Under the pieces are notes generated by a model, which was not told the origin of the DNA, did not search any database, and saw only the letters and a program-made list of their open reading frames with translations. The position numbers and the translations under genes are program-made. DNA of 64,000 nt, from assembly GCA_902786275.1 (NCBI GenBank), contig CADACC010000002.1, forward strand, positions 7,600 to 71,599. The letters are read 5' to 3'. This DNA is from an uncultured Erysipelotrichaceae bacterium (GTDB lineage: Bacteria; Bacillota_I; Bacilli_A; RF39; UBA660). The first letter of the stretch is position 1. Each line of letters starts with the position of its first letter. Positions 9,102-63,947 of the stretch are shown piece after piece.

Positions 9102-9476
9102 ATGAATAAAAAAGGGTTTACTTTAATAGAACTTATTGCAGCAATCATGCTTTTAGGAATTATTTTAGTAATGGTTTCTTTAAATGTTGTTAGACACTTA
9201 GAGAAAAATAAAAGAAAAATAATTCTTGAAAGTGCCAAAAGTTATGTAACAGTAATTAATGATAATAATTATATAAATGATCCAGATAAAGTAATATCAA
9301 GTAGTACAGTTGAATCTATTAATCCAAAGATAAAAAAACAAATAGCAGGAGATTTACCTTCAAGTGGATCTGTAACTGTTAATGCTACAACTAAAAAAGT
9401 ATCTTCTGCAACACTGGTATTTGATAAATACAGAGTTGTATTTAATGGAACTAAATATACAATATCGGCTAATTAA
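9102..9476 (+). CDS. type IV pilin / pseudopilin (prepilin-type N-terminal cleavage/methylation domain, ComGC-like)
   Basis: MNKKGFTLIELIAAIMLLGIILVMV… has the class III signal peptide: G|FTLxE with Glu at +5 and a hydrophobic helix. Length is 124 aa. Confidence 0.75.
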   Translation: MNKKGFTLIELIAAIMLLGIILVMVSLNVVRHLEKNKRKIILESAKSYVTVINDNNYINDPDKVISSSTVESINPKIKKQIAGDLPSSGSVTVNATTKKVSSATLVFDKYRVVFNGTKYTISAN

Positions 9477-9511
9477 AAGTCTATTATTTTAGAAAAATAA
9501 TAGGCTTTTTT
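9477..9511 (+). terminator. Rho-independent terminator
   Basis: AAGTCTATTATTTT agaa AAATAATAGGCTT + TTTT. Confidence 0.55.
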
Positions 9512-9514
9512 AGT

Positions 9515-9543
9515 TTGACAAAATATAAGCAATAATCTATACT
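9515..9543 (+). promoter_or_regulatory. near-consensus sigma-A promoter (TTGACA, 17 nt, TATACT)
   Basis: -35 TTGACA at 9515-9520, a 17-nt spacer, and -10 TATACT at 9538-9543. It lies 37 nt upstream of the ATG of the large pilin-like gene. Confidence 0.5.
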
Positions 9544-9579
9544 AAATATAGTATGAAAAATAGAGTATGGAGAGTAGCA

Positions 9580-11968
9580 ATGAAGAAGAGAAACGGTTTT
9601 ACATTAATAGAACTTATTGCAACAATTGCAATACTTACAGTTGTATCCCTTGTTGCAACTATTACTTATAATAAAATTAGAAAAGATGTTTTAGAACATC
9701 AATATTTAAATTTAAAGACTCTTATTGAAACTGCTGCAATTAAATACTCATCTAAAAATGGATACTCTAGTTTTTTTGTTCAAGACTTAATTGAAAATGG
9801 TTTTTTAGAACCAGATGATGAAACAGATGTATATGACCCAAGAAACGATAAATCTTTAAATTGTCATATTTTAAGTATTAGTGTTGAAAAAAATGGTATG
9901 CTTTCAGCTGATATGAGTGATAAATCATATGATGAAAGTGGTAAATGTAAAACATCATCACTTGATATATATGAAGCTAATTTAAGAATGAATGCTAAGA
10001 TTGAAGGAACTAGTGTAACATATCCTGTTAATTCACTTAATACAGGTACTAGTGCTCCATATATCTTTGAAGGATGGACAAGATTTAATCTTGATATAAC
10101 AGCTGATCCATCAAGTATTCCTGAATCTCTTCAAAATGGTAAATATGTATGGAATAGAAATAATGATGTAACTACTATAGAACCTAATAGAACTATTACA
10201 ACTAATGAGTATGGTGTTTATAATAATTATTATTACTTAGATTTCTATACAGAAGCTGGTACAAGATATCAAGCTAAAATGTTATATAAATTTGATAATG
10301 AAAAACCAACTATCTATCGTGACTCTAATGGAAAAGATAGAATAAAGTTTGTTGATCAAGAAGATAATAATAGATGGGCTAAATCTAAAAATGTCTTTAT
10401 CTATGCATCTGATAAAAATGGATCTGGTTTAAGCAAAATATATATTGGACGTGAAAAATGTGAATACGCTCTTGAAAATAATTTAACAAGACCTGCAATT
10501 CCAGGTATCATCCAAGTTTATGAAGTAAAAATTGAAACTGGTGATGCTAGAAATCAAAATGAAGAATATAATGTATGTGTTATTGATAAAGCAGGTAATA
10601 TAGCTAAATCAAAAACTAAAGTTACACTTGTTGATATAACTCCTCCAAGATGTGATCATGTGTCACCTGATTTAGGATCTATTGATGAACCTATTATTAT
10701 GGCTAACTGGATTAGACCAGATAGAACAATTAGAACATTCTGTGCAGATGATCACTATATAACTGAAGATGGTGTTGAAAGACACTTATGGGGTTCTGGA
10801 TGTGTACAAGATTATTATGATAAAACATATTCACCAACTACTATAAATGGTACAACAGAAATAACAGATAATGTTGGTTGGGTTTCAACTTGTGAATATA
10901 GAGTTTTAGTTGATAAAACTCCACCTATATGTGGTGTATCTGAAGATGAATCAACTGTATGGCAATATGAAGATAGAACTATAAAACAACACTATCATGA
11001 TGAACATAGTGGTCCACTTGAAGATACAGTAAATGTTAAAACATTCGTACCAACAACTTTATGTTGATAAAACTCCTCCATACATTTCATATGCAAGATA
11101 TGGTAGTGGAGCATCATTTTATGAATCTAGTTGTCCTGGATTAATATCATTTACATGGACTGACGATGAAAGTGGATTTGCTTCAGGAACTCTTAGCGCT
11201 TGGTATGGAGGAACAAAAACTGCTGATGGTATGGAAACATCTGATGATGTTAATGCTAAGTTATGGACTAATTCATCAAGGACATCAAGATGTGCTCTTG
11301 GAAATTATAGATTTGAGTTACAAGGAACGGATAATGTTGGAAATAAGTCAGCTGTAAAAACTTATAGTTATTCTGTTATACCTGATCCGCCACCACCACC
11401 ACAACCTCCAAGCAATTCCGGTTGTAATTCAAACAAATTTGAAGAATTTAGGGTAAAAGATTCTCATAGCTGTACATATTATATGGAGGTTAGTTATGAT
11501 GAACAAAGATGTCCAAGGTATGGTTGCAAGGAAACTGAATCCCTTTCTGATCTAACATTTACATACTATGCTCAAAAAGAAGGAGAAGCTGTTGATAGGG
11601 CATATAATGCAGTATCTACATCCGCTAATGCAGTTGCCAATCGTATGGGTACACAAATGTATTCCGCTGGTGATAATGGAACACTGTTTATATGGGCAGA
11701 TTGCTCAGCAGGCTCAAATGGATTATCTTGTACAGATAATCGTGACGGTTTTGCTACGTCATATACTCTTGGTAAATCAACATGTTCTGATCCAGAACTT
11801 GTTACTTCTGGATACCATCTTGGTGAATACAAGGTAACATGTAAAGTCAAAAGAACTAGATGTTTAAAATATAAAAATGGCGGGGAATACATGCAAAATA
11901 GTTCTACAGAGTATGTATATTATTGTTGTAAATCATTAAATTCTGATACACATTGTAAAGTAAGATGA
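9580..11968 (+). pseudogene. large (about 800 aa) prepilin-signal surface protein with repeated …VDKTPP… boundaries and a Cys-rich C-terminal domain; interrupted by a frameshift near 11030-11067
   Basis: The N-terminus MKKRNGFTLIELIATIAILTVVSLVA is a class III signal. The frame-1 ORF ends at 11067 (…VPTTLC*). A frame-2 ORF opens at 11033 and immediately reads …LYVDKTPPY…, the same motif as RVLVDKTPPICG at about 10905. This indicates one gene split by a 1-nt indel. The C-terminal part carries a PPPPQPP linker and about 14 Cys. Confidence 0.6.
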
Positions 11969-12005
11969 TATAATATACGGTAATTACAAAAAAGGAAGTG
12001 TTAAT

Positions 12006-13610: not shown

Positions 13611-14711
13611 ATGAAAAATATTATATTAACAGGTGATAGACCAACTGGTAAGCTTCATATTGGACACTATGTTGGTTCACTTAAAAATAGAGTTAAACTT
13701 CAAAATGAAGGTAACTATGAAAAAATGTATATAATGATAGCTGATGCTCAAGCATTAACTGATAATTCAGGTAATCCACAAAAGGTAAGAGATAATATTA
13801 TTACTGTAATGCTTGATTACTTATCAATTGGACTTGATCCAGAAAAAGTAACATTTTTTATTCAATCAGAGGTAAGAGCATTACCTGAAATAACAGCTTA
13901 CTATATGAATTTAGTAACACTTCCAAGACTTCTTAGAAATCCAACTGTAAAATCAGAAATTACAATGAGAGGTTATGATTCAGAATCAAAAGGTATACCT
14001 GTTGGATTTGCTAATTATCCAATTAGCCAAGCTGCAGATATTACAGCATTTGATGCTAATATTATACCTGTTGGTGATGATCAACTTCCAATGATAGAGC
14101 AAGCAAGAGAAATAGTTAGAAGTTTTAATGGAACATATAATAAAGAAGTTTTAATTATGCCTGAACCAAAACTTCCAGATAATGAAGCTTGCTTAAGACT
14201 TCCAGGTTTAGATGGAAATGCTAAAATGAGTAAATCACTAAATAACTGTATTTATTTATCTGATGATTCTAAAACAGTAAAAGAAAAAGTATTTAGTATG
14301 TATACAGATCCAAATCATATTAAAGTTGAAGATCCTGGTAAAGTAGAAGGTAATATGGTATTTACTTATTTAGATGCTTTTTCATCTGATGAAGACTTTA
14401 AAAAGTATTATCCAGAATTTAATAATCTAGATGAACTTAAAAAAGCTTATTCAAATGGTGGAATTGGTGATATGAGAATTAAAAAATTCTTATATGAAGT
14501 AATTGAAGAACTACTTACTCCAATAAGAGAAAAAAGAAAAGAATATATAAATAAAATTCCATATATTGTTGAAGCTCTTGAAAAAGGAACAAAAGAAGCT
14601 AACGAAAAAGCTGATGAAGTTTTAGATAGAATAAAAGATGCTCTTGGAATAAGATATTTTAATAAAGAATTTATTGAAGAACAAACAAAAAGATTTAATG
14701 AAGAAAATTAA
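13611..14711 (+). CDS. trpS: tryptophan--tRNA ligase
   Basis: Class I aaRS with the HIGH-type motif (TGKLHIGHYVG) and KMSKS. RBS AAAGGTGA is 5 nt upstream of ATG 13611. The ORF track's 13602 start is an in-frame GTG. Confidence 0.9.
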   Translation: MKNIILTGDRPTGKLHIGHYVGSLKNRVKLQNEGNYEKMYIMIADAQALTDNSGNPQKVRDNIITVMLDYLSIGLDPEKVTFFIQSEVRALPEITAYYMNLVTLPRLLRNPTVKSEITMRGYDSESKGIPVGFANYPISQAADITAFDANIIPVGDDQLPMIEQAREIVRSFNGTYNKEVLIMPEPKLPDNEACLRLPGLDGNAKMSKSLNNCIYLSDDSKTVKEKVFSMYTDPNHIKVEDPGKVEGNMVFTYLDAFSSDEDFKKYYPEFNNLDELKKAYSNGGIGDMRIKKFLYEVIEELLTPIREKRKEYINKIPYIVEALEKGTKEANEKADEVLDRIKDALGIRYFNKEFIEEQTKRFNEEN

Positions 14712-14797
14712 TACATTTTTTAGAAAGTAATACATGTGTATTACTTTCTTTTTATTTAGGATAAAATATGATAAAATAATCAATATGGAAGGTGATT

Positions 14798-15907
14798 ATG
14801 ATGTATTATTTTGATTATAGTGCAACAACTAAAACAGATAAAAAAGTTTTAGAAAGATTCACTGAAGTATCACAAGAATACTTCGGTAATGCAAATTCAT
14901 CATATGAGTTTGCAAGAAAATGCAAGAAAGTTATTGATGATACAAGCTGTATAATCGCCGACTACTTTGGCGTTTTACCTAATGAAATTATTTATACTTC
15001 TGGTGCAAGTGAAGCTAATAATTTAGCTATCAAGGGAACAGCAGAACTTACAAATAAAAAGCATATTATTACAACTAAGATTGAGCACTCATCAGTTGTA
15101 TCAACATTATCTTATTTACAAAGTAAAGGTTATAAAGTTGATTTCGTAAATATGACTGATGAAGGAACTGTTGATATAGAGCATTTTAAAAGCTTAATAA
15201 ATGACGATACTTTTTTAGTTACAATGTGCGCTGTTGATAGTGAACTAGGTATTAAGCAACCTATTGAAGAAATAGGTAATATTTTAAAAGATTATGATGA
15301 CATAATTTTCCATGTTGATATAACTCAGTGTGTTGGAAAAGTTCCAGTTAATTTAGATAATATTGATCTTGCATCATTTTCAGGACATAAAATTTATGCT
15401 CCAAAAGGAATAGGTGCTTTAATTAAGAAAAATACTGTTAAATTATCACCACTTATTCATGGTGGTAAATCAACAACTGTTTATAGAAGTGGTACTCCAC
15501 AAAACGAACTTATTGCATCACTTGGAAAAGCATTTGAAATATTAATGCCAAATGTTGAAAATAACATGAAATATGTTCAAGAGTTAAACGATTATTTAAA
15601 AGAAAAATTAAATGGTATTGCGCTAATTAATTCAACAAATAAGTCTATTCCAAATGTTTTAAATATAAGTATTCCAGGTGTTGTAAAACAAGATATACAA
15701 AACTATTTATCAGATAGAGAAATATATGTTTCACTTAATACTGCATGTAGTTTAAATACTGATTATTCTAAAGTAGTATATGAACTTTATAGTGATATGG
15801 ATAGGGCTAAATCATCAATTAGAATTAGTTTATCTTATTTAACAACAAAAGATGAAATAGATTATCTTGTTGATAATATAAGAGGGTATTTAAATGAAAA
15901 TAATTAA
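14798..15907 (+). CDS. cysteine desulfurase (NifS/IscS class V aminotransferase)
   Basis: …YFDYSATT…GASEANNLAIKG…SFSGHKIYAPKGIGAL… are hallmark NifS motifs. The start is ambiguous between ATG 14798 and ATG 14801. Confidence 0.85.
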   Translation: MMYYFDYSATTKTDKKVLERFTEVSQEYFGNANSSYEFARKCKKVIDDTSCIIADYFGVLPNEIIYTSGASEANNLAIKGTAELTNKKHIITTKIEHSSVVSTLSYLQSKGYKVDFVNMTDEGTVDIEHFKSLINDDTFLVTMCAVDSELGIKQPIEEIGNILKDYDDIIFHVDITQCVGKVPVNLDNIDLASFSGHKIYAPKGIGALIKKNTVKLSPLIHGGKSTTVYRSGTPQNELIASLGKAFEILMPNVENNMKYVQELNDYLKEKLNGIALINSTNKSIPNVLNISIPGVVKQDIQNYLSDREIYVSLNTACSLNTDYSKVVYELYSDMDRAKSSIRISLSYLTTKDEIDYLVDNIRGYLNENN

Positions 15908-16148
15908 AATAACAGCTTCTTGGTGTCCATCTTGTTTAATAATGAATGGTATGATAGATGATATTATTTCTAAATATAATTTAGAAATGATTAGTTTAGA
16001 TTTTGATTTAGATCAAAGTGAAGTTGAAAAATATAATGTTGGAACTTTGCTTCCAGTACTTATTAAATTAGATGATAATGATAATGAAATATCAAGAATA
16101 AAGGGAGAAAAATCAGAAAAAGAAATCGTAGAATTTATAGAAGGATAA
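15894..16148 (+). CDS. thioredoxin-family small protein (WCPSC active site)
   Basis: 84 aa containing …TASWCPSCLIM…. It overlaps the nifS-like gene by 14 nt. Confidence 0.7.
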   Translation: MKIIKITASWCPSCLIMNGMIDDIISKYNLEMISLDFDLDQSEVEKYNVGTLLPVLIKLDDNDNEISRIKGEKSEKEIVEFIEG

Positions 16149-16155
16149 ATGTTTT

Positions 16156-17373
16156 ATGAAGAAGTATATAACGCTAATTATTGCACTTATTTTATTAATT
16201 ACACCAATATATACTAAAGCTTTATCTGTTTCTAAAAAATCAAATGAAAAAATCTATTTATTTTATGGAAGAGAGTGTCCTCATTGTGAAGAACTAATGA
16301 AATATTTAGATGAGTTATTTTTAGATAAGAAATATAAAGATGTAAAGCTTGAGAAATATGAAGTGTGGCATAATAAAGAAAATAATAGTAAGCTTGTTGA
16401 AGTAGCGAAGATTCTTAAAGAAGATGCTGTTGGGGTTCCATACATGGTAATTGGAACAAATGTTGTTCAAGGATTTTCTGATGCAAATAAAGAAGAAGTA
16501 AAAGCCATTATAGATTTTTACCTTTATGAAGAATATTTTGATCCAGCAGGTGACTATTTAAATAAAACTGATACATCAAAACTACCAACTTTAAAATATG
16601 AAAAAGAAAATAAAGAAGAATATGATGTTCCGGTTTTAGGTAAAATAAATGCAAAAAATGTATCTTTATTATTAGTATCAGTTATTATAGGTGCAGTTGA
16701 TGGATTTAATCCTTGTGCTATGTGGATACTACTTTTCTTACTTAGTTTACTTATTTCAACTAAAGATAGAAAGAAAATGTGGATACTTGGTTTAACATTT
16801 ATTTTAACTAGTGGAATTGTATATCTATTATTTATGCTTTCTTGGTTAAATGTAGCTAAATATACATCAAGCATTATTGTAATAAGATACTTAATAGGTG
16901 TATTTGCTTTAGTATTTGGATCTATTAATTTATATAGGTTTATTAAAACTTTAAAAGAAAAAGATGTTGGTTGTGATGTAACTGATGCTAACAAAAAAAG
17001 AAAAATAATGGATAGAATAAGAAAAGTCCTTGATCAAAACAAATTACTTTTAGCAGTTCTTGGTATTATGCTTTTAGCAGTATCAGTAAATTTAATAGAA
17101 CTATTATGTTCACTAGGTCTTCCTGTTATGTATACAGAAATACTTGGTTTGAATAATTTATCAACTCTTGAGTATGGCTTTTATATGTTTATATATATCT
17201 TATTCTTCTTAATAGATGATCTAGTAATATTTATTATTGCTATGAAAACATTAAAACTTAAAGGTATATCAAATAAATATATGAAATACTCACATCTAAT
17301 AGGTGGCTTAATAATGTTAATCATAGGTCTTTTAATGATAATTAAACCATCTTGGTTATTATTTAATTTTTAA
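16156..17373 (+). CDS. secreted thioredoxin-like domain (CPHC) fused to a CcdA/DsbD-type thiol-disulfide transporter membrane domain
   Basis: Signal peptide, then …FYGRECPHCEEL…, then the membrane core …GAVDGFNPCAMWILLFLL… (CcdA/DsbD signature), with a second Cys in CSLGLPV. Confidence 0.7.
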   Translation: MKKYITLIIALILLITPIYTKALSVSKKSNEKIYLFYGRECPHCEELMKYLDELFLDKKYKDVKLEKYEVWHNKENNSKLVEVAKILKEDAVGVPYMVIGTNVVQGFSDANKEEVKAIIDFYLYEEYFDPAGDYLNKTDTSKLPTLKYEKENKEEYDVPVLGKINAKNVSLLLVSVIIGAVDGFNPCAMWILLFLLSLLISTKDRKKMWILGLTFILTSGIVYLLFMLSWLNVAKYTSSIIVIRYLIGVFALVFGSINLYRFIKTLKEKDVGCDVTDANKKRKIMDRIRKVLDQNKLLLAVLGIMLLAVSVNLIELLCSLGLPVMYTEILGLNNLSTLEYGFYMFIYILFFLIDDLVIFIIAMKTLKLKGISNKYMKYSHLIGGLIMLIIGLLMIIKPSWLLFNF

Positions 17374-17377
17374 AATA

Positions 17378-17407
17378 ATGCTTTAAACTTAAAGCATTAT
17401 TTTTTTG
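17378..17407 (+). terminator. Rho-independent terminator
   Basis: AATGCTTTAA actt AAAGCATT + ATTTTTTTT. Confidence 0.65.
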
Positions 17408-17428
17408 TAAATAATAATAATAGATTAA

Positions 17429-17457
17429 TTGAATATAAATAGATTTATTGTTATAAT
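17429..17457 (+). promoter_or_regulatory. sigma-A promoter (TTGAAT, 17 nt, TATAAT)
   Basis: -35 TTGAAT at 17429-17434, a 17-nt spacer, and consensus -10 TATAAT at 17452-17457. It lies about 30 nt upstream of the pilin-LRR gene. Confidence 0.5.
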
Positions 17458-17485
17458 TTAAACATAATAAGGGATTGTGAATAGT

Positions 17486-19447
17486 ATGAAAAAGAAAAAT
17501 GGTTTTACATTAGTTGAACTTATTGTTACTTTAGTAATCTTAATTGTCTTAACTTTAATTGCAACAAATATTATTTTAAGTCGTATAAATAAAACAAGAC
17601 AAGAAGCCTTTTTAGATAAAGTAAAAATATATATTAAAGGCTTAGATGCTGATGTTATGGATAACAAAGAATACGATGAGTTTAAGGTATATAACTTTCC
17701 AGGATATAAAATAAAAGCTGTTGATGAACAACCTGATGCTGGCTTCATTATGAAAAATGAAGATAATGAATACCGTGCTCAAATATGGAATAACAAACTT
17801 GAAAAATGTGCAGTAAAAGGTTTTTCAGATACCGATGTTAAAATATCTAAAACTATAAAAAATAAAGCAGACTGTGTATCAAGTTATGCATCAGCTAATA
17901 ATGTTATTGGACAAAGTATATATAATTTATTTGGTATTGAAATGAAAGATTCTGATGGAAATGATGTTGTTATTAAAGAATCTTGTTATACAGTTAATAG
18001 TAGTGGACAAATAACTGACTATGATGCTGACAAATGTGGTTATATTTTTATAACTCCAGATAAAATAGATGGTAAGGATATAACAGGTTTTAATACTGAT
18101 TTTTATAATAATTTAAGAAATAAGGATGTAACTGACTTTTATATAGCTAATGTTCCTAAACTTACAACAATCCCATCTGGATTTTTATCAGGCAATTCAA
18201 ATGTTAAGAATATTATGATTTATGGAAATCCTTTATTAACAGAAATACCTGCTGGATTCTTATCAGGTGATAGAAATCTAGATAGTGTAAGAATAATAAA
18301 TAATCCAAACCTTACCACTTTTGCTCAAGGTAATTTCTTCTTCAGTCAAACAGATCATGGATTTATTAAAAAAATAGAATTTGCTGATTTACCAAAACTT
18401 TCTACTTTCTCAGCTGTATTTGCTTATGTAGATTTTGAAGAATTTATTTTAAGAAATATTGGTGAGGACTCTGGTGATGGAATTCAAATAAAAGATAATG
18501 CATTAACAAACAATATAGGAGTTAATAACGCAAGACTTATTATTGAAGATAATAAAGGTTTATATTATGGTTCTGATGGTGCTATGTCATCATTCTATGC
18601 TGCAGATCACGATAAATCCAGTATAAGTTATGTGTCTATTAAAAATAATAAAAGACTAGATCTTTTATCATATAGTTTTCTTTGTAATGTTAAATATAAT
18701 AATGCAGAAATATATATTGAAAATAATGACTCTTTAACAGGTATTAGAAATAGTGCTTTTATTGGTGATGGTACTATAAAAAAATTAATTATTAAAAATA
18801 ATAAAAATTTAACAGGATTTGGTGAATCTGCATTAAGTGGTAATACATCAAATGGTGGACTACAATTTGTTAATGGCGATTTAATTATTGAAAACAATGA
18901 TAGCCTTGCGGAAATAACTAATAGTGCTATGGGTGGTTTAGCAGGAACAATTAATAAGTTCTCAATATCAAATAATAAGAGCTTATTAACATTTACAAAT
19001 GGAGCCCTAACAAATGATTCTAATAACAAACCAAATATAAAAGAATTTATTGTTAAAAATAATGCAAAATTATCAATTATTGACAATGGTACAATTTCTA
19101 ACTATAAGATTGATAAGGCAGTATTTGAAAATAATGCATCTCTTGATAATTTATGTCGATATAGTGCCTTTTCAAATAATGAGATAAATGTTCTTGATTT
19201 GTCCAAATCACAATTTACTACAGTTGAACCATCATGCGGAATATATAATAATTCAATAAATACCTTAATACTACCAACAACACTTACTAACTTTACACCA
19301 GGTCATTTAACAAGTGGTGTTAAAAAAGAAGTATATGCGGGTGGGCCAAATAAATGCGCACTTAATAACTATTTTATAAATTATAATCCAGATGGATCAA
19401 TAGCAGGATATAATGTTAATCCATCAATAGTGCCTGTTTGTGATTAA
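17486..19447 (+). CDS. prepilin-signal protein fused to BspA-type leucine-rich repeats (LRR_5-like), about 650 aa
   Basis: N-terminus MKKKNGFTLVELIVTLVILIVLTLIA is a class III signal. The C-terminal two thirds are tandem about 23-aa repeats (…IPSGFLSGNSNVKNIMIYGNPLLTEIPAGFLSGDRNLDSVRIINNPNLTTF…) typical of BspA/Treponema LRR surface proteins. ATG 17486 is preferred over the in-frame GTG 17477. Confidence 0.75.
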   Translation: MKKKNGFTLVELIVTLVILIVLTLIATNIILSRINKTRQEAFLDKVKIYIKGLDADVMDNKEYDEFKVYNFPGYKIKAVDEQPDAGFIMKNEDNEYRAQIWNNKLEKCAVKGFSDTDVKISKTIKNKADCVSSYASANNVIGQSIYNLFGIEMKDSDGNDVVIKESCYTVNSSGQITDYDADKCGYIFITPDKIDGKDITGFNTDFYNNLRNKDVTDFYIANVPKLTTIPSGFLSGNSNVKNIMIYGNPLLTEIPAGFLSGDRNLDSVRIINNPNLTTFAQGNFFFSQTDHGFIKKIEFADLPKLSTFSAVFAYVDFEEFILRNIGEDSGDGIQIKDNALTNNIGVNNARLIIEDNKGLYYGSDGAMSSFYAADHDKSSISYVSIKNNKRLDLLSYSFLCNVKYNNAEIYIENNDSLTGIRNSAFIGDGTIKKLIIKNNKNLTGFGESALSGNTSNGGLQFVNGDLIIENNDSLAEITNSAMGGLAGTINKFSISNNKSLLTFTNGALTNDSNNKPNIKEFIVKNNAKLSIIDNGTISNYKIDKAVFENNASLDNLCRYSAFSNNEINVLDLSKSQFTTVEPSCGIYNNSINTLILPTTLTNFTPGHLTSGVKKEVYAGGPNKCALNNYFINYNPDGSIAGYNVNPSIVPVCD

Positions 19448-19478
19448 AAGCTATACATATAATGTATAGCTTTTTTTC
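19448..19478 (+). terminator. Rho-independent terminator
   Basis: AAAGCTATACAT ataa ATGTATAGCTTT + TTTT. Confidence 0.7.
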
Positions 19479-19536: not shown

Positions 19537-20730
19537 ATGGAATTAGTACCAAAACTTGTTCTTGCTAAGAATTTATATTTTTCACTATCAACTGTTAGAA
19601 ATCAACATCACTTTAAAATGAGAGATATTGATTCACTTGATGCAAGAAAAATAAAGGGAAAAAAATATATATTAGTTAAACTAAATAGTGGTAGAACTTT
19701 TACAACACCACTTAGAGAATTTAAACTAAATAAAAAAGGTAAAATAGCCTTAGGAACATTATCAGTTTTAACTGCAGGAACAATTGCTGCATCAATTGCG
19801 GGTTTTAAATACACAAAAACTGATGATGGTAAAGTAAAAATAACAGATGAGAAAGTTTATGCAACTGCAGAAGATATATTTATTGATGAAGATGATAATG
19901 TAGTTGATTATACTAGTGATGAAATAAATTCAGTTGAGTATATTGCTAATGAAGAAACTGTAACCGATGAAGTTACTTTAGCGGAGGCAATGGATATTGA
20001 TGAAACAACTAGTGTAGATGAAACTCAGTATATAGAAAATGAATATAGTAATATTAGAACGTTATCCGTTGAAGGAGATTCAACAAGAGGTATTGATGCA
20101 TATAATAGAATAATAGATAACTATTATGATGATATTGTTAAATATGGTGAAATGTATGGAATAGATCCTGCTATTATTGCAGCTCTTATGATGGAAGAAG
20201 GCGGAACTACATATGATCCTAATGCTGAAGAAAACATGGGAGCAATCGGTTTTGGACAAGTAAGTTCTAGTGATTGGAATAATCATGAGTTTAATACATA
20301 TAACTTTATAACTGGTGAATATGATTATTACAAACTTGATGTAAATGACTTAAAAAATAATCCGACAAAACAAATCGAGGCAATTGCAAGAATGCTTCAA
20401 GAATCAGCTATTAGGTACCATGGTAATTTCTCAGCTATAACTGTTTGTTATAATCAAGGCTGTGGAACAGTTGCTAATATTACAAATAATTTAATAAATA
20501 GTGGTGATTATTCATCATCTATGGATGTATACAATAATGAAAATGCTTTATTAATATTTGAAAATGATCCATATACATATGGAAATAAAGATTATACAAA
20601 TAGAATTGTTACATATTTGGATGAAATATTAAAAAATGAAGTATTTGGTAGTAGCGTTGCTACTATTAAACTTCCAGATGGAAGTGTATTTAATTACGAA
20701 ACAAGTATTCAAAATGAACTATCAAGATAG
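19537..20730 (+). CDS. membrane-anchored lytic transglycosylase-like protein (SLT/GH23-type domain)
   Basis: TM anchor followed by …GEMYGIDPAIIAALMMEEGGTTYDPNAEENMGAIGFGQVS…. This matches the SLT motif pattern (E-S/G … GAxGLMQ). Confidence 0.55.
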   Translation: MELVPKLVLAKNLYFSLSTVRNQHHFKMRDIDSLDARKIKGKKYILVKLNSGRTFTTPLREFKLNKKGKIALGTLSVLTAGTIAASIAGFKYTKTDDGKVKITDEKVYATAEDIFIDEDDNVVDYTSDEINSVEYIANEETVTDEVTLAEAMDIDETTSVDETQYIENEYSNIRTLSVEGDSTRGIDAYNRIIDNYYDDIVKYGEMYGIDPAIIAALMMEEGGTTYDPNAEENMGAIGFGQVSSSDWNNHEFNTYNFITGEYDYYKLDVNDLKNNPTKQIEAIARMLQESAIRYHGNFSAITVCYNQGCGTVANITNNLINSGDYSSSMDVYNNENALLIFENDPYTYGNKDYTNRIVTYLDEILKNEVFGSSVATIKLPDGSVFNYETSIQNELSR

Positions 20731-21455: not shown

Positions 21456-22727
21456 ATGAAAAATAGTAAGGCTTTTACACTAATTGAACTTATAGCTGTA
21501 CTTGTTATTTTAAGTTTATTAACAGTTATAGCAGTTCCAGCTATTTCTCATTTAATAAAGAGAAATAAAGATAAATCATTTAATACAAAAGTAAATGTAA
21601 TTATTAAACAAGCTAAACAATATTCATATGATAATGAAAACTTTTTAAATGGTAGTAACAAAAAATACGATGGTTATGTATGTAATACCATAACTGTAGG
21701 AGAGTTAAAAAATCTTGGTTACTTAGAAGAATTAGAAAAAGAATCAGGAACTAATAAAATAACTGATCCTAGAACTAATGAATCTATGGAAAACTATACA
21801 GTTATGCTTTATATAAAAAGTAATACAACAGGAACTGGTACAAATAAAACTGCTGGTGCCTTGGTTGGAACTATAAAAAATATTGATAAATGTGAATCAA
21901 GTGGAGACATATTTATTTATACAGGAAGAGAAGAAGTTTTTACTGCAGCAACAGCGGGAAAATATAAAATTGAAGCCTGGGGTGCAGAAGGTGGATCTGC
22001 AAGTAAAACATACCGTGGTGGATATGGTGCATATTCATATGGTGAGATAACTCTTGCTCAAAATGAAAAACTATATGTAAACGTTGGTGGCCAAGGTGGA
22101 GTAACATTACAAGCAAATGTTATAGAACTTGGTGGATATAATGGTGGAGGAATTGCTGTTAATGGTAATTCTGACTCACTAAGTTTAAATGTTGGAGCAG
22201 GAGGTGGAGCATCGTCCGTTGCTTTATCATCTGGACTACTTAGAAGTTTTGAAAATGACCCATCACAAGTTATTATTGTAGCTGCTGGTGGAGGCGGAGG
22301 AAAATATTACGCCGATAGATACCATGCAACCGGTGGAGATGCTGGAGGAATTGCTGGTGGCGATGCCAAAGACTTACAATGGTATGATAACTACGGTCGC
22401 GGTGCATCTCAAACTGCAGCCGGTTGTAATTCAACTGGTGGAAGTTGTGGTTCATTTGGTGCATCTAACTTACCAGGTTCTCCAACACCAACAACTGGTG
22501 GTGGCGGAGGCTACTATGGTGGTTCTGGTGGACAATATGGTGGAGGCGGAGGCTCAAGCTATATAGGAAACTCTAGATTAACTAATAAAGAAATGTATTG
22601 TTATAACTGTACTGAATCATCAGATGCATCAACTAAGACAACTTCAACAACGTGTGTTGAAGCTGATGCAAAAATAAACTGTGCTAAAAAAGGAGCAGGT
22701 GCAGTTAGAATTACTCACGTTGAATAG
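21456..22727 (+). CDS. prepilin-signal protein with C-terminal glycine-rich (GGxGG-repeat) domain; paralogue 1
   Basis: N-terminus MKNSKAFTLIELIAVLVILSLLTVIAVPA. The C-terminal domain is …KIEAWGAEGG…YRGGYGAYSYGEITL…LYVNVGGQGG…GGYNGGG…AAGGGGG…GGGGGYYGGSGGQYGGGGGSSYIGN…AKKGAGAVRITHVE. Its motif order is shared with the three genes at 26727-31527. Confidence 0.75.
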   Translation: MKNSKAFTLIELIAVLVILSLLTVIAVPAISHLIKRNKDKSFNTKVNVIIKQAKQYSYDNENFLNGSNKKYDGYVCNTITVGELKNLGYLEELEKESGTNKITDPRTNESMENYTVMLYIKSNTTGTGTNKTAGALVGTIKNIDKCESSGDIFIYTGREEVFTAATAGKYKIEAWGAEGGSASKTYRGGYGAYSYGEITLAQNEKLYVNVGGQGGVTLQANVIELGGYNGGGIAVNGNSDSLSLNVGAGGGASSVALSSGLLRSFENDPSQVIIVAAGGGGGKYYADRYHATGGDAGGIAGGDAKDLQWYDNYGRGASQTAAGCNSTGGSCGSFGASNLPGSPTPTTGGGGGYYGGSGGQYGGGGGSSYIGNSRLTNKEMYCYNCTESSDASTKTTSTTCVEADAKINCAKKGAGAVRITHVE

Positions 22728-24797: not shown

Positions 24798-26315
24798 ATG
24801 GAAAAGCAAATGGAAAGACAATACGAAATAAATGATTTCTTAAAAACTTTATTTAGTTATAAGGTTGATAATAATACTGAAATAACACCTGAAGTTGTTT
24901 CTAGTTTTTTGTATACTTATGATCTTTCACCTGAAGAATTAAATTATACATATCGTAATATTTATCCTTACTTTGAAAAAGATTTTCAAAATACAAAAAC
25001 TAAAGTTCATGAAGATCCAAGACAAAAGAATTTCTTACAACTTAGAACAAGAAATAAATTTAATGATAATAATTATATAAAAATGTATATAAATGTTAAC
25101 CCAACATACATCTATAATGTTGTAAAACAAGTAATAGATTTTTTAAATGCAAATGGAATAGATCACAACTCAAAAGTAAGTTCTAGTCCAAGAAGTGATG
25201 GATTTGTTGTTAGATTAAAAAATGCATCTGATGCTAAAGCATTAGCTGATTATATTAATAATGATCAATCACTTGTAAGTGTTATAAGAAAACCTATACC
25301 TTTTATGTTTAGAGATGGTGTTGTAGGTTTATCATATGATAAGAATTTATCATATATAACAGTTTTAACTAATTTAATAACTAAATATATTAATAGTAAA
25401 GAAAATGCAAGTGAAATATCATATAAAGATTTCTGTCAGTTCCAAAGAGATAATATTTATAATATTTTCTCAGCTAAAAATAAACTAGCTGGTTTAAAAG
25501 AATTAGTATCAGGCGATGAATATAAAAAATCACTTGGTAGAATCAGAACTATTAGTAAAGCTTATATGGAAGAAGATTTGTTATCAAATTATTTAAATGT
25601 GTATAATGACTTAGCATTATCTACAATTGAAAATGATGAAAGTAAATATTATCAACTATATAATGGATTTACTAATACAGAACTTCAAAAGAAACAAGTA
25701 GCATCAATTACTGATCTAGTTTCTTTAGTTAAAAAAGATACTATTAATGAGAAGAAAGAATTAATAGATGATTATATTTTATATGCATATAATACATATA
25801 AGAACATAGATACTGTTAGAAAACAATTATTTGAATTTCAAAAAGGTCATTATAGCGCTATAACTAGAGATCAAAATTTTAGAGTAAGACTTGCTGATCT
25901 AGATGAAGAAGATTTAAGAACTATTACCAATCCAAGTATTGATAAATATATTAAAGATGTTTTAGCAAAAGAACTTAATGTCGAATCCGGTGAAAAAGGA
26001 ATCGATAAATATCAAATATTTATTAATGCTTGTAAGGCAACATATCAAACTCATGGTGTTGAGCAACTTAAAAAAGCAATAGAACTTGCTCTAACTAACA
26101 GAAACTATCAAGCATTTACAAATCAAAATGGTGGCTTTAGAAGAGAACTAATAAAATATGTTTTACCTGAAGAAGTTATTAATTTTGTAAATGAAACAAT
26201 TGAAAAGAATGTTAAAGTAAGAAATACATCAATTCCACTTCATGAAGAGTTTACAAATATATTTGTTGCACTAGTAATGCCAAATGAATCAATGTATAAA
26301 GGTTTAGCAGCATAA
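24798..26315 (+). CDS. hypothetical protein (505 aa), no recognisable domain
   Basis: Long uninterrupted ORF, probably co-transcribed with the small acidic ORF upstream. Confidence 0.5.
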   Translation: MEKQMERQYEINDFLKTLFSYKVDNNTEITPEVVSSFLYTYDLSPEELNYTYRNIYPYFEKDFQNTKTKVHEDPRQKNFLQLRTRNKFNDNNYIKMYINVNPTYIYNVVKQVIDFLNANGIDHNSKVSSSPRSDGFVVRLKNASDAKALADYINNDQSLVSVIRKPIPFMFRDGVVGLSYDKNLSYITVLTNLITKYINSKENASEISYKDFCQFQRDNIYNIFSAKNKLAGLKELVSGDEYKKSLGRIRTISKAYMEEDLLSNYLNVYNDLALSTIENDESKYYQLYNGFTNTELQKKQVASITDLVSLVKKDTINEKKELIDDYILYAYNTYKNIDTVRKQLFEFQKGHYSAITRDQNFRVRLADLDEEDLRTITNPSIDKYIKDVLAKELNVESGEKGIDKYQIFINACKATYQTHGVEQLKKAIELALTNRNYQAFTNQNGGFRRELIKYVLPEEVINFVNETIEKNVKVRNTSIPLHEEFTNIFVALVMPNESMYKGLAA

Positions 26316-26726: not shown

Positions 26727-27977
26727 ATGCCTAAGTATAAAAATAATAAAAAGGGATTTACTTTAGTTGAGCTTTTAGCAGTTGTTATAATTCTAATAAT
26801 CATTATGACAATTGCAATTACTACTGTAAATAAACAAATGGAAAAAACTAGAAAGAATGCATTTGTTGCAGATGTAAATATTTTTATAAAAGCTGCACAG
26901 CAAAAATATTCATCTGATAGATCTAACCATGCTGCTGGTGAAGATTTATTTCATAATGCTATAGAGGGAAAAGTTTGCTATTCAATAGATCAACAATTAA
27001 TTGGTAAATACGCAGAAAAAACAAGTGAAAGTTATACTGGATCAGTTGAAGTATGTTATGGTGAAGAATGTGAATATGCAATTAAAGTGTGGGCAACAGA
27101 TGGAGAACATTATGTTGACGGGGCAACATATTTTAGAGATAAAAAAGATATCAAAAAGAAATATACAACTGATTATCCTTTAACTTGTGGTGTTGAAGCT
27201 TTAGGTGGCGGTGGAACAGGTGGAGACTTACTTACTGCTGAATTCGAATCTAGACCTGAAGAATATAAAATGACAATTGTTAAAGATGGTGTATATTCCC
27301 TAGAAGCTTGGGGAGGACAAGCAGGACGTTACATGGAACTTCGTGGTGGTTATGGCGGATATGCATATACTGAAATTGAACTTCATGTTGGAGACACACT
27401 ATACATTAATGTAGGTGGAGCTGGAGGCGATTATAGTTCTGTTACTGGATATGGTAAGGGAGGCTATAATGGCGGTGCTAATGGAGCCAGTAATAGACAT
27501 GCAGGTGGCGGAGGAGCTACTACAATAACAACAAAACCAGGTTTTCTTTATGATAATGTACTACCAGATTATGTTTATTTAGTTGCAGGTGGCGGAGGAG
27601 CTAGATCTGGTTCAGAATGCTGCTGCAATGCCATGACAAGTGGAAATAGTGGTGGAGGAGCATGTGATGAATCAAATAGAATTTGCCAGTCTAATCACAA
27701 TTACGGGAAAGCGACATACCCTGGTGCTGGTGGTGGGTTTAGAGCTCAAGCTTCAGATATAGGTTGTGGCTATCCATCAGGTGGATCAGGTTATATTGGT
27801 AATCCACTAACAAAAAATGGTGTTATGTATGGTTATAATGCTACTGAAAACACATCTGCAAAAACTAAAACTATACCAACTACAAATATAAGTGAAAAAC
27901 CAATCTCTGGTTATGCTAAACAGGGTGCAGGTTTTGCAAGAATAACTTATATAGGAACATTTACTAATCAAGAATAA
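26727..27977 (+). CDS. prepilin-signal protein with glycine-rich GGxGG-repeat domain and CCC motif; paralogue A
   Basis: …NKKGFTLVELLAVVIILIIIMTIAI… followed by a conserved globular region (…KVCYSIDQQLIGKY…GSVEVCYGEECEY…WATDGEHY…). The Gly-rich domain reads EAWGGQAGRYMELRGGYGGYAYTEIELHVGDTLYINVGGAGG…GGYNGG…AGGGGATTI…VAGGGGARSGSECCCNAM…GGSGYIGNPLTKNG…AKQGAGFARITYIGTF. Confidence 0.75.
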   Translation: MPKYKNNKKGFTLVELLAVVIILIIIMTIAITTVNKQMEKTRKNAFVADVNIFIKAAQQKYSSDRSNHAAGEDLFHNAIEGKVCYSIDQQLIGKYAEKTSESYTGSVEVCYGEECEYAIKVWATDGEHYVDGATYFRDKKDIKKKYTTDYPLTCGVEALGGGGTGGDLLTAEFESRPEEYKMTIVKDGVYSLEAWGGQAGRYMELRGGYGGYAYTEIELHVGDTLYINVGGAGGDYSSVTGYGKGGYNGGANGASNRHAGGGGATTITTKPGFLYDNVLPDYVYLVAGGGGARSGSECCCNAMTSGNSGGGACDESNRICQSNHNYGKATYPGAGGGFRAQASDIGCGYPSGGSGYIGNPLTKNGVMYGYNATENTSAKTKTIPTTNISEKPISGYAKQGAGFARITYIGTFTNQE

Positions 27978-28015: not shown

Positions 28016-29245
28016 TTGAATAAGAAAGGATTTACTTTAGTAGAACTTTTAGCAGTTACAATAATACTTATAATTATTACAACTATTGTAATATTTACCG
28101 TTAATAAACAAATGGAGAAAAGTAGACTTAATGCATTTTTAGATGAAGCTAATGTATTTGCTAAAGCTGCTCAACAAAAATATTCAACAGATAGAACTAC
28201 CGAAGCCATTTCAGAGGATTTATTCCATAATGCAATAAAGGGGAAGGTTTGTTATTCAATTGAACAACAACTTTTAGGTAAGTATGTTGAAAAACCTAAT
28301 AGTAAATATACTGGATCAGTTGAAGTATGTTATGGACTTGACTGTGAATATACTTATAAAGTATGGATTACAGATGGAGAACATTACATTGATGGACAAA
28401 CTGAAATAAATGATTACAATGACATAAAAGAAAAATATACAACTGAGTATCCTTTGACATGTGGTGTTGAAGCTGCTGGTGGTGGAGGATCTGGCGGAGA
28501 CTTACTTACTGCAGAGTTTAAATTTTCAGGATCTCAATATGAAATGACTATTGCAAAAGATGGAGTATATGCTCTTGAGGCTTGGGGTGCTCAAGGAGGA
28601 CGCTTTGGAGAAACACGTGGAGGATATGGCGGATATGCTTATACAGAAGTTGAACTTCATGTTGGTGATAAACTTTATATTCAAGTTGGAGGCCAAGGTG
28701 GTGTAAACGGTGTTGGAAATCCAGGTGGATATAATGGTGGTGCAGATGGTCAAGGTTCCGGTGGCGGTGGAGCAACAACAATTGCAACCAAACCAGGATT
28801 CATATATGATCCTATATTAATTGATTATGTATATATCATTGCCGGAGGTGGCGGCGGAGTTGCAAGATGGTGCTGCTGCTGTGGTGGAATCTCTAGAGGA
28901 TTTAATGGTGGTGGATACTGTGCAGAACCTTCGCCTAATAGAGGTACTATTTGTCAAGCTGGACATAGTTATGGAAAAGCTACTGGCTACGGAGGCGGTG
29001 GAGGATATCGTGCCCAAAGTAGCCAAGTTGATAGTGATCATCATATGGGTGGATCTGGTTATATTGGTAACCCACTTACAAAAAATGGCATCATGGCTGG
29101 ATTCAACGTTCCAGAAAGTACTGCTGCAAATACAAGAACTATTAGTACAACAAATGTATCAGAAAAACCTATATCACAATATGCAAAACAAGGTGATGGG
29201 TTTGCAAAAATAACTTATATAGGAACATTTAGTGACCAAGAATAA
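28016..29245 (+). CDS. prepilin-signal protein with glycine-rich domain and CCCC motif; paralogue B (TTG start)
   Basis: Same architecture as paralogue A: …NKKGFTLVELLAVTIILIIITTIVIF…EAWGAQGGRFGETRGGYGGYAYTEVELHVGDKLYIQVGGQGG…ARWCCCCGGISRGFNGGGYC…GGSGYIGNPLTKNG…AKQGDGFAKITYIGTF. The start is placed at TTG 28016 by alignment with ATG 29287 of paralogue C; both are preceded by GAAAGTGGTG. Confidence 0.7.
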   Translation: MNKKGFTLVELLAVTIILIIITTIVIFTVNKQMEKSRLNAFLDEANVFAKAAQQKYSTDRTTEAISEDLFHNAIKGKVCYSIEQQLLGKYVEKPNSKYTGSVEVCYGLDCEYTYKVWITDGEHYIDGQTEINDYNDIKEKYTTEYPLTCGVEAAGGGGSGGDLLTAEFKFSGSQYEMTIAKDGVYALEAWGAQGGRFGETRGGYGGYAYTEVELHVGDKLYIQVGGQGGVNGVGNPGGYNGGADGQGSGGGGATTIATKPGFIYDPILIDYVYIIAGGGGGVARWCCCCGGISRGFNGGGYCAEPSPNRGTICQAGHSYGKATGYGGGGGYRAQSSQVDSDHHMGGSGYIGNPLTKNGIMAGFNVPESTAANTRTISTTNVSEKPISQYAKQGDGFAKITYIGTFSDQE

Positions 29246-34623: not shown

Positions 34624-35397
34624 ATGGACGACTCTAGAAGAAAAACTTTACTTATTACTATTTTTATATTTATTCTTATAACAGCAACAGCTATATTATA
34701 TTTTACATATACAAAGGATGTTAAAACTGTTAAATCTAATAATGATTCTGAAATTAATAATAAACCTACTAAAAAAACAGATGAAGAATTGATTATCGAA
34801 AAAATAAAAAAATATAACTTAATTGCTTTAAGATACTATAAAAATGATCTATCTTTTAAGAAGAGTGAAGTAACTGAAGCAATTAGTTATTCTGAACCAA
34901 TGGGAGAGTTACTATTTGCATATGTAAGTGATCATGGAAGCTTAAATAGAGAAGCTGCAGATAAACTATATAAAGATTTATTTGGATATGCTCCAGAAAC
35001 TATGATTCCATATGTTTGTCCACTTGATAATGAAGAACTATTATCTGTTGATGATTCTAAAGAATTATATTATATAAATGAAAATCATCCATGTCATGGT
35101 GGTAGAACATATGATTATATTGATTTAAAAATTATAGATACTAAAAAAACAGAAAACATATATGAAGTATCTGTTGCTTTCTTATACGGAAATAACGCTG
35201 ATGGATTTTATATAAATGATAAAGAAATAGATCTACCTTCTTCTGACGAAAAAGAATATACTGAAGAAGATTACATAAAAGCTTATAAAGATTTCTTTAA
35301 AGAAAAAACAGATTTTACTGATGTAGAAAAGTATACATATACATTTGAAAAAGAAAATAACAATTATATTTTAAAAGAATTTAAAAGAACAATATAA
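34624..35397 (+). CDS. hypothetical membrane-anchored protein (tandem paralogue 2)
   Basis: …NHPCHGG…AFLYGNNADGFYINDKEIDL…YTYTFEKENNNYILKEFKRTI is alignable with the 33639 gene. Confidence 0.5.
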   Translation: MDDSRRKTLLITIFIFILITATAILYFTYTKDVKTVKSNNDSEINNKPTKKTDEELIIEKIKKYNLIALRYYKNDLSFKKSEVTEAISYSEPMGELLFAYVSDHGSLNREAADKLYKDLFGYAPETMIPYVCPLDNEELLSVDDSKELYYINENHPCHGGRTYDYIDLKIIDTKKTENIYEVSVAFLYGNNADGFYINDKEIDLPSSDEKEYTEEDYIKAYKDFFKEKTDFTDVEKYTYTFEKENNNYILKEFKRTI

Positions 35398-62710: not shown

Positions 62711-62712
62711 TT

Positions 62713-62958
62713 ATGGATATAATTACATTTACTGAAGAACTTGTAAAAAGTATTGTTAAAGAACCAGATATGGTTAAAGTACAAAGCTTTGGTGGTGAAG
62801 AAGAAGCTCAAATCCTTGAAATTATCGTTGCTGATTCTGATAAAGGAGCAGTAATTGGTAAAAATGGACGTATGGCTAATTCTCTTAGAACTATCGTACA
62901 AGCTTATGCTTATTTACATGATAACAAAAAGATTAAACTAAATATTGATTCTTTTTAA
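62713..62958 (+). CDS. KH-domain RNA-binding protein (YlqC/UPF0109 family)
   Basis: 81 aa. …VIGKNGRMANSLRTIV… is the KH GxxG loop. It sits in the usual position after rpsP. Confidence 0.8.
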   Translation: MDIITFTEELVKSIVKEPDMVKVQSFGGEEEAQILEIIVADSDKGAVIGKNGRMANSLRTIVQAYAYLHDNKKIKLNIDSF

Positions 62959-62986
62959 TGATTTCTTAAAAGAAATCATTTTTTTG
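62957..62986 (+). terminator. Rho-independent terminator
   Basis: AATGATTTCTT aa AAGAAATCATT + TTTTTT. Confidence 0.7.
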
Positions 62987-63016
62987 TGCTACAATATTTT
63001 TTAAGAGGTATCTAAT

Positions 63017-63469
63017 ATGGCTTTATCAGAAAAAAGAAGACAAGAGATTAATCGTCGTGTTGATTTAACTGGTGACTTTTTAATAAAAACTCATTTATCT
63101 ACAAGAGAAATAGCAGAACATTTCTCTGATAATTCAGATATTTATTTTAAAGCAAGCCATGTATCAATATCAGATTACGTAAAAAAATATATAATGAAAT
63201 ATCCTGAAAAAGAGAATTTAATTAAAGATATATTAGATGAAAACAAAGGATCAAGTCTTAATCAAGAAAGAATATTAAAAAGAATAAATGATGCGTATGC
63301 ATTCTTAGAACAAGGCTTAAACTTTGAAGAAATTGCTTATAAGCTAAGCGAAAGTTATTGGGTTATTTATTATGATATACATTTAAGATTACGTAAACTG
63401 GATAATCATCGTTATAAAATAGCTAAAGAATTTATAAAAAATAATCAAAAAAATAAAAACAAAAAGTAA
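63017..63469 (+). CDS. hypothetical protein (150 aa)
   Basis: Clean ORF with a sigma-A-like upstream region. No recognisable family. Confidence 0.45.
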   Translation: MALSEKRRQEINRRVDLTGDFLIKTHLSTREIAEHFSDNSDIYFKASHVSISDYVKKYIMKYPEKENLIKDILDENKGSSLNQERILKRINDAYAFLEQGLNFEEIAYKLSESYWVIYYDIHLRLRKLDNHRYKIAKEFIKNNQKNKNKK

Positions 63470-63536
63470 ATATAAACCAATTTATGAGTGTAAAGATTAT
63501 AAAAATAATGGTATACTTAAATAGTAGGTGATATGT

Positions 63537-63947
63537 ATGAATAAAAATGGGTTCACATTTATTGAATTATTAGCAGTTATTGTTTTAATTGCGTTAATTA
63601 CAGTTATTGCTGTTCCAACAATTAAGCTAGCTGATAAAAAGATTCAAACAAAAAATTTAAATGCAAAGTTAGAATTAATAAAAACCGCTGCTGAAAGTTA
63701 TGGTGACGATAATAAAGATGTACTTCTTTATCAAACAACAACAACTTATACAGACCCATCAAATAATGCTAAATATCCAAGCATAACAGTTACAGTTAGA
63801 GATTTACTTAATAATGGATATTTAGTAAAAGATAAAAATGAAAAAGGCGAAGATATTAAAAATCCTGTAACAAAGGAAAGCCTTCTTAATAAGACGATAA
63901 CAATTTACTATAAGAATAATAGGGTAAAAGCAAAACTTAATTTCTAG
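63537..63947 (+). CDS. type IV pilin / pseudopilin (prepilin-type N-terminal domain)
   Basis: MNKNGFTFIELLAVIVLIALITVIAVP… RBS TAGGTGA precedes ATG 63537. An extended -10 TGgTATACT lies at 63509-63517 upstream. Confidence 0.7.
   Translation: MNKNGFTFIELLAVIVLIALITVIAVPTIKLADKKIQTKNLNAKLELIKTAAESYGDDNKDVLLYQTTTTYTDPSNNAKYPSITVTVRDLLNNGYLVKDKNEKGEDIKNPVTKESLLNKTITIYYKNNRVKAKLNF

Follow-up and report, generated by a model that had tools for sequence, protein, structure and literature searches.

The stretch of DNA analysed here, referred to throughout as the window, comprises 64,000 nucleotides (positions 7,600 to 71,599 of contig CADACC010000002.1, assembly GCA_902786275.1) from an uncultured Erysipelotrichaceae bacterium, and it contains eight genes whose products begin with a class III (prepilin) signal. 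The genes are named by the position of their open reading frame (ORF) start in the window: 9102, 9580, 17486, 21456, 26727, 28016, 29287 and 63537 (Table 1). A regular-expression scan of the six frames found exactly eight such signals, all on the plus strand and all at ORF starts, and the motif [GA]F[TS][LF][IV]E[LI][LI], which matches eight times in the six-frame translation, was not matched in any of 200 Markov-1 simulations. In every case a Lys/Asn-rich leader of 5-10 residues precedes Gly or Ala at position -1, the sequence F-T-[LF]-[IV]-E-[LI]-[LI] and about 20 hydrophobic residues which form the alpha1-N helix. The residue at -1 is Gly in seven of the eight and Ala in 21456, where the orthologues keep it. 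Phe1, Glu5 and the full alpha1-N are strictly conserved in all eight proteins, as is Pro22 in 21456 and 63537. According to Pfam and NCBIfam, seven of them score above the cut-offs of PF07963 (N_methyl, 21.2 bits) and TIGR02532 (16.3 bits); 28016 falls just under both, with 15.8 bits for the latter. The prepilin cleavage/methylation signature which the first-pass annotation of this DNA had assigned to these eight genes is thus confirmed.

Table 1. Genes with a prepilin signal in the window, and platform-peptidase gene pairs in related loci (window numbering, or that of the locus named).
Feature	Coordinates	Strand	Evidence
Small classical type IV pilin, 124 aa, leader MNKKG, no Cys	9102..9476	+	PF07963 E=3.6e-7, TIGR02532 E=4e-7
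Cys-rich modular pilin, N-terminal part: class III signal and first beta-rich repeats	9580..11067	+	PF07963 E=1.7e-7
Cys-rich modular pilin, C-terminal part, other reading frame	11033..11968	+	orthologue match
LRR-like modular pilin, 653 aa: signal, pilin-module region, solenoid	17486..19447	+	PF07963 E=7.5e-7
Bimodular GRD pilin, 423 aa, Ala at -1, Pro22	21456..22727	+	PF12810 E=4.8e-35, PF07963 E=1.2e-6
GRD modular pilin, 416 aa, first of three tandem paralogues	26727..27977	+	PF12810 E=9e-16, PF07963 E=1.4e-6
GRD modular pilin, second tandem paralogue	28016..29245	+	PF12810 E=2.7e-19, PF07963 20.4 bits
Multimodular pilin, 746 aa	29287..31527	+	PF12810 E=1.4e-15, Flg_new E=4e-20 (3 stretches), PF07963 E=4.9e-5
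Small classical type IV pilin, Pro22, no Cys	63537..63947	+	PF07963 E=2.9e-5, TIGR02532 E=1.1e-5
T2SSF-peptidase pairs (Bacilli/'Tenericutes' metagenome-assembled genomes)	L074 7259-9914; L092 8375-10765; L094 8168-10753; L096 8168-10735

Two of the eight products are small and pilin-sized, as had been noted, with 124 aa (9102) and 136 aa (63537); a length of 139 aa is obtained for the second only from a GTG codon at 63528 instead of the ATG at 63537. The 9102 gene is translationally close to two small upstream ORFs (8210-8878 and 8865-9095), and its protein is identical on at least 17 contigs and is named in one source as a prepilin-type N-terminal cleavage/methylation domain protein. The 63537 gene sits between a 150-aa ORF and fmt, and its equivalents are found in the same place, after khpA, in L006-L008 and in the relative L046; the best sub-threshold NCBIfam match of its product is ComGC.

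The other six products carry large additional regions. According to the definition of modular pilins (Raynaud et al., 2021), a pilin module is joined to a recognizable passenger through PF12810 in four proteins and through Flg_new in one, while in 17486 and in the 816-aa protein encoded by intact copies of the 9580 gene the extra region is evident but no Pfam passenger model scores above its cut-off. Among the passengers listed by the first-pass annotation, the glycine-rich domain (GRD) in four copies and the Flg_new repeats stand, whereas the BspA-type leucine-rich repeats (LRR) do not, and the gene for the Cys-rich protein is split in the window. The C-terminal extensions are real, since orthologues at 55-98% identity retain the signal, the full length and both Pfam domains.

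The GRD matches to PF12810 (ALK_LTK_GRD) in 21456, 26727, 28016 and 29287 range between 58 and 122 bits (E 5e-35 to 1e-15) against a cut-off of 24.5 bits. An AlphaFold2 (AF2) model of 21456, based on a 19-sequence alignment and with a pLDDT of 85.4, shows the globular pilin fold of a long alpha1 helix on a small beta-sheet (helix 9-59, strands 69-80, 115-121 and 135-139), followed by a separate GRD. In Foldseek, the 21 best PDB matches of this model are all TG/GRD structures of ALK or LTK (E 7e-9 to 7e-6, probability 1.0). The N-terminus of the GRD-pilin profile matches solved pilins and pseudopilins (geopilin, MshA, Streptococcus sanguinis PilE1, PilA and GspG), and its C-terminal part matches the GRD of the invertebrate ALK homologue scd-2. 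Furthermore, about 130 residues of the 21456 pilin module align at 37-38% identity with the stand-alone pilin 63537 and likewise with a 128-aa pilin of the relative L014 which is syntenic upstream of der-spoVIF-spoIVA; this homology is as the grafting of a GRD onto a pre-existing small pilin predicts.

The three remaining GRD genes are tandem paralogues whose products are 49-68% identical, the highest value being that between 26727 and 28016. The start codon of 28016 is ambiguous, either TTG at 28016 (409 aa) or GTG at 28004 (413 aa), and its signal motif is perfect. In 29287, which TIGR02543 matches with E=1e-21, the GRD stands behind the pilin module and is followed by two Flg_new repeats and, after an unassigned region, by a third. 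The GRDs of these three paralogues show runs of consecutive Cys (WCCCCGG, YCCCCGG and ECCCNA, with CCCC present in 28016), which are missing from 21456 and from the ALK/LTK family consensus. The orthologue of 28016 in L011 (ERZ919344 assembly, at about 6600) is broken by a 17-nt deletion, and its GRD shows dense substitutions round the Cys-rich loop, with 94% identity compared with 98-100% in the flanks.

Homologues of the GRD pilin number more than 1,000, and the close ones have the same N_methyl and GRD architecture. Many homologues are about 700 aa long and contain two GRDs; some of these have a class III signal and are named by NCBI as prepilin-type proteins of 'Bacilli bacterium', and others have an ordinary hydrophobic N-terminus. 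Many double-GRD proteins, among them the homologues P0010, P0018, P0063 and P0081 of 21456, begin MKKTTILIIVVLFMVIGYAAYN…, which is not a class III signal. Judging by these N-termini, the GRD passenger is apparently exported or anchored in at least two ways. A SipW-type signal was considered for the homologues that are not pilins and was rejected for want of NCBIfam support, and their N-terminus is given no named signal type. A GTDB scan with the GRD-pilin alignment gave 43% identity for the best relative among the matches listed.

The Cys-rich protein, described earlier as having about 800 residues, is intact in other assemblies, with 816-819 aa; in the window its gene is split by a frameshift deletion. 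Compared with an otherwise identical contig, the window is without 62 nt at about 11058, which leaves two ORFs (9553-11067 and 11033-11968), and tblastn with the intact 816-aa orthologue of L002 aligned residues 1-493 in one frame with 100% identity and residues 511-816 in a second frame with 98.7%. The intact protein, whose genes are found in L001-L004 and L097-L099, has 24 Cys and three D[KI]TPP-type repeats. Sequence searches against Pfam and the PDB recognized the signal but no passenger domain in it, and matches of OmpL47-type beta-barrel stayed below threshold. Different strains show different frameshift deletions in different modular pilin genes (62 nt in the window, 17 nt in the 28016 orthologue of ERZ919344), which could correspond to on/off variation or gene conversion, or to assembly error.

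The proposal of BspA-type LRR in 17486 found no confirmation, as no PF13306 (LRR_5) match was obtained at E<=0.01, and BLASTP of the protein against the LRR_5 pilins of relatives gave an alignment confined to the N-terminal helix. Matches to other LRR are weak, with a sub-threshold LRR_8 at E=0.0022 and the LRR of GPIb-alpha at E about 8e-4. A single-sequence AF2 model (pLDDT 61, with low confidence in the pilin-module region) has regular strands, and its best Foldseek matches are all LRR ectodomains, with E>=0.007. The matches and the model weakly support an LRR-like beta-solenoid of about 24-residue repeats, roughly in residues 210-600.

The GC content of the window is about 27%, and its genes lie almost without exception on the plus strand. 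Its housekeeping and sporulation genes, which include rpoB/rpoC, der, spoIVA, spoVIF, cotE, ezrA and relA, indicate that the host is a spore-forming Firmicute. Identical or nearly identical contigs, some of them of 250-356 kb, are present in several ENA metagenome assemblies, and the sources are rumen and gut metagenomes. The RpoC of the window shares a cluster at 90% identity or more with NCBI proteins named 'Bacilli bacterium', which come from metagenome-assembled genomes (MAGs). As had been described, the prepilin-signal genes are scattered and do not form one pilus operon; their neighbours are der, spoIVA, fmt and further housekeeping genes.

Near-consensus promoters had been reported at 9515, 17429, 21410 and 26670. 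The sites exist, but shuffled sequence contains such sites just as often (136 promoter-like sites in the region versus 140.8 +/- 12.5 in shuffles), and therefore, in a genome of 27% GC, the promoter evidence carries no weight. Own terminators had been attributed to the same four loci; a scored terminator was found only for 17486 (hairpin 19446-19474), and 9102 has an AT-rich hairpin. Neither 21456 nor 63537 has a terminator, and they run straight into der and fmt, respectively; 21456 is probably co-transcribed with der (22784).

No homologue of PilB, PilT, PilC, PilD or PilM is present in the window, in the 8 kb upstream or in the 10 kb downstream, about 84 kb in total. This was established by tblastn, using as queries these five proteins of two Firmicute loci together with platform and peptidase proteins of related MAGs, and by Pfam context, on which the flanks were judged; it agrees with the first-pass annotation, which had seen no ATPase, platform or peptidase gene in the window.

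The same type of gene was found in related low-GC gut Bacilli. In 67 related low-GC loci there are 98 complete class III ORFs, 39 of them with at least 300 aa, and their passengers include LRR_5, DUF6273, three dockerins, Ig-like domains, Flg_new and GRD, together with many regions without a Pfam match. L095 (1-12106), whose RpoC belongs to the same 90% cluster as that of the window, shows a tandem array of at least eight N_methyl and GRD genes encoding 402-747 aa, and L059 (2848-13609) shows five tandem N_methyl and LRR_5 genes encoding about 680-690 aa. In L042 (5663-6616), from a MAG labelled 'uncultured Clostridium sp.', a 317-aa class III protein carries three type I dockerin repeats; by its domains, this protein would be a pilin able to dock to cohesins.

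'Bacilli bacterium' MAGs commonly contain prepilin peptidase and T2SSF genes, and there too these genes are dispersed. In four independent contexts, a gene encoding a long T2SSF protein (536-633 aa) is directly followed by an A24 prepilin peptidase gene, among unrelated housekeeping genes (Table 1). The T2SSF protein of the pair has an extra N-terminal region, with several added hydrophobic segments in the L074 and L094 versions. None of the four contexts shows a T2SSE ATPase within 10 kb, and only one of them has pilins beside the pair. Likewise, the related low-GC loci have no PilB/PilT-type ATPase within 10 kb of their pilin genes, unlike loci from other phyla. Two ATPase matches were rejected as candidates: a marginal match beside pilins in L048 is Lon protease, and a match in L037, from a rabbit-gut Bacilli MAG, belongs to a Tad-type (CpaF-like) locus. 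The latter is a Tad-like cluster (14160-18744) located 4 kb downstream of an orphan pilin, and it encodes two TadE-like small proteins, a ParA/TadZ-like protein, the CpaF-like ATPase and two TadB/C-like membrane proteins. Since the platform and peptidase genes of relatives are also isolated among housekeeping genes, the lack of such genes in the window is no sign of an unusual pathway, and dispersed type IV filament genes look typical of the lineage and not peculiar to the window.

Taken together, we consider it probable (about 0.68) that the window encodes two classical and six modular type IV pilins, whose filament machinery lies elsewhere in the genome and whose modules are exposed as binding heads. 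Each prepilin-type protein would be inserted into the membrane, where a prepilin peptidase encoded elsewhere would cleave it after Gly or Ala at -1 and methylate Phe1. Through its alpha1-N helix, with Glu5, the processed subunit would join a type IV filament of which a small pilin is the main component, and the bulky modules would come to lie on the outside, most probably at the filament tip, where they would act as interchangeable heads for binding or adhesion. From the signals and architectures we infer processing, incorporation into the filament, location at the tip and a function in adhesion; the most likely role of the proteins is to display adhesin-like modules at the surface.

Several points weigh against this interpretation. 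None of the eight pilin modules, all of which were scanned, reaches an NCBIfam equivalog cut-off, so the type of filament, type IV pilus or Com-like, is not given by them. With the PilD and the long T2SSF of a relative as queries, no peptidase or platform of the window species or of its close relative was among the matches listed. No PilB/PilT-type ATPase was found in about 1.0 Mb of related low-GC loci, which is a partial sampling, and the assembly motor is therefore assumed. The GRD homologues with an ordinary anchor mean that the pilin N-terminus could serve simply as an anchor, and six bulky subunits are many for one filament.

The main rival takes up the general display route suggested by the first-pass annotation, here without a fibre: the class III signal would be a cleavable signal for membrane anchoring and export, with the modules either held in the membrane by alpha1-N or pushed through the wall by short pseudopili, and the proteins would be comparable to archaeal class III substrates, for instance sugar-binding proteins. 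The passengers are unusually many and varied for one genome region, the GRD homologues exchange the class III signal for an ordinary hydrophobic N-terminus as if it were a mere anchor, and in the approximately 1 Mb of related loci there is no PilB/PilT-type ATPase beside the pilins or beside the T2SSF-peptidase pair. We nevertheless regard such a route as unlikely, because all eight proteins strictly retain Glu5 and the complete alpha1-N, and two retain Pro22, and these features matter for assembly and not for anchoring alone. Moreover, small classical pilins able to form a fibre are present (9102 and 63537), a T2SSF platform is conserved beside the peptidase in relatives, and the absence of the ATPase rests on that partial sampling. 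To our knowledge, the T2SSF platform protein has no role except in filament assembly.

The eight proteins might instead be extra subunits of a Com pilus, as the only type IV filament of the genome, with ComGA, ComGB and ComC doubling as a display machine. Com systems are near-universal in Bacilli, and several pilin modules have ComGC, ComGD and ComGE as their best NCBIfam matches below threshold. However, the scores are far below the equivalog cut-offs, so that membership of ComGC, ComGD, ComGE or ComGF is not supported (at best 39 bits versus 75 for ComGC and 34 versus 49 for ComGE), and the matches span the N-terminal helix only. Furthermore, no comG operon context was seen in any of the loci examined, and the platform gene of relatives is paired with a peptidase and not with a ComGA-like ATPase, which makes this explanation very improbable. 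Finally, an artefact, either of chance motifs or of ordinary small pilins whose ORFs were extended in error, is suggested only by the one gene broken in this assembly and by the ambiguous start codon of 28016, and is excluded by the eight motif matches versus none in 200 simulations, by curated Pfam passengers inside the same ORF and by full-length orthologues in many independent assemblies.

Going beyond the window, we advance with considerable doubt that a clade of low-GC Bacilli from gut and rumen may use the pilin N-module as a general carrier for a large and fast-changing surface repertoire (GRD and LRR arrays, dockerin pilins and members silenced by frameshift in particular strains), served by a minimal and dispersed machinery of a long T2SSF with an extra N-terminal membrane region and a peptidase, possibly with no dedicated PilB-type ATPase.

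If the interpretation as modular pilins is true, these uncultured organisms, abundant in gut and rumen, show how far the grafting of modules onto pilins can go, with six different heads for one filament type in 64 kb and arrays of eight in close relatives. It would also give a cellular context, exposure on a pilus, to bacterial relatives of the ligand-binding domain of human ALK/LTK, and this could guide the search for their ligands. The understanding of type IV filaments would be unchanged unless a variant free of ATPase or of fibre proves true.

Other genes lie near the prepilin-signal genes. Upstream of the LRR-like pilin (15894-17373) are a thioredoxin gene and a gene for a 405-aa protein in which a thioredoxin-like domain precedes a multi-span membrane region and which looks DsbD/CcdA-like, and downstream of it (19537-20730) is a gene for a 397-aa membrane-anchored SLT lytic transglycosylase; these genes could help Cys-rich pilins to form disulfides and to pass through the wall, or be unrelated. 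Between der and spoVIF, a 505-aa protein of cytoplasmic appearance (24798-26315) has as its sole match a borderline one to the HopA1 effector family (E=5.7e-5, 23.5 bits versus a cut-off of 22.7). Two adjacent paralogues (33639-34508 and 34624-35397) encode N-terminally anchored proteins of 289 and 257 aa with a common C-terminal region, …LYGN..DGYYIND.E.DL…YTY.FEK.N..Y..KEFK, for which there is no Pfam match on record. Outside the window, a gene for a HerA/DUF87-type ATPase of 525 aa is located about 3 kb upstream of its start, and L097-L099, three independent assemblies of the same species, all stop within about 100 bp of one point, about 8 kb upstream of the window start, which suggests a repeat there, such as an rRNA operon or a mobile element.

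Modular pilins were defined from PilB (vWA module) and PilC (lectin module) of the Firmicute S. sanguinis, and more than 1,200 proteins with 264 architectures are known in monoderms and diderms (Raynaud et al., 2021; PMC8179133). Dataset S1 of that work lists two proteins with the architecture IPR012902-PF12810 and one with three PF12810 domains, 18 proteins with IPR012902-IPR026906 (LRR_5) and 6 with two copies, nine with IPR012902 and two IPR013378 (Flg_new), and one PilY1 architecture that contains PF12810 (PMC8179133). The idea of the first-pass annotation that proteins of this kind are mainly an archaeal trait and not typical of Firmicutes is therefore mistaken, as they were first shown in S. 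sanguinis and their architectures have been catalogued (PMC8179133). Since N_methyl combined with PF12810, LRR_5 or Flg_new is among those architectures, the kind of protein is known, though none of these three architectures has been studied, and the window is a dense new example of modular pilin design, not a new kind of system. A search of the literature on type IV pili in RF39/RFN20-type Bacilli and on bacterial GRD proteins found nothing specific.

The closest known system is that of S. sanguinis PilB and PilC (PMC8179133; PMC9934059), also from a monoderm Firmicute, in which a class III signal and a small pilin module are joined by a short linker to a bulky binding module, and in which, as in the window, there are several modular subunits per organism. 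The two differ in that the S. sanguinis genes lie in the pil locus with the machinery whereas those of the window lie among housekeeping genes, and in the modules, which in the window are GRD, LRR-like and Cys-rich, with more copies and tandem paralogues; the window proteins are, moreover, known from sequence alone. The large minor pilins of diderms (CofB of enterotoxigenic Escherichia coli, GspK of the type II secretion system and Thermus ComZ) and the PilY1/PilC tip adhesins likewise present an effector domain on a carrier that docks to a filament; however, the genes of CofB, GspK and ComZ are beside other minor pilin genes and their extra domains mostly have no Pfam signatures, and PilY1 does not belong to the pilins. 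In archaea, many diverse extracellular proteins, such as the sugar-binding proteins of the Sulfolobus bindosome, have a class III (prepilin-type) signal and scattered genes, and are processed by a different peptidase, PibD. The window proteins are unlike them in their bacterial-type GFTLIE signals, their Glu5 and their match to bacterial pilin structures. With regard to the passenger, the TG domain of ALK/LTK (PDB 7LS0, 7NX0 and 7LIR) is the nearest relative of the GRD, as PF12810 scores above its cut-off in four window proteins and the 21456 model retrieves only ALK/LTK GRDs, although the identity is about 20% and the TM-scores are modest (0.3-0.43). In contrast with the ALK/LTK proteins, those of the window are bacterial and have neither a kinase nor an EGF-like domain, and the three tandem paralogues carry extra Cys clusters.

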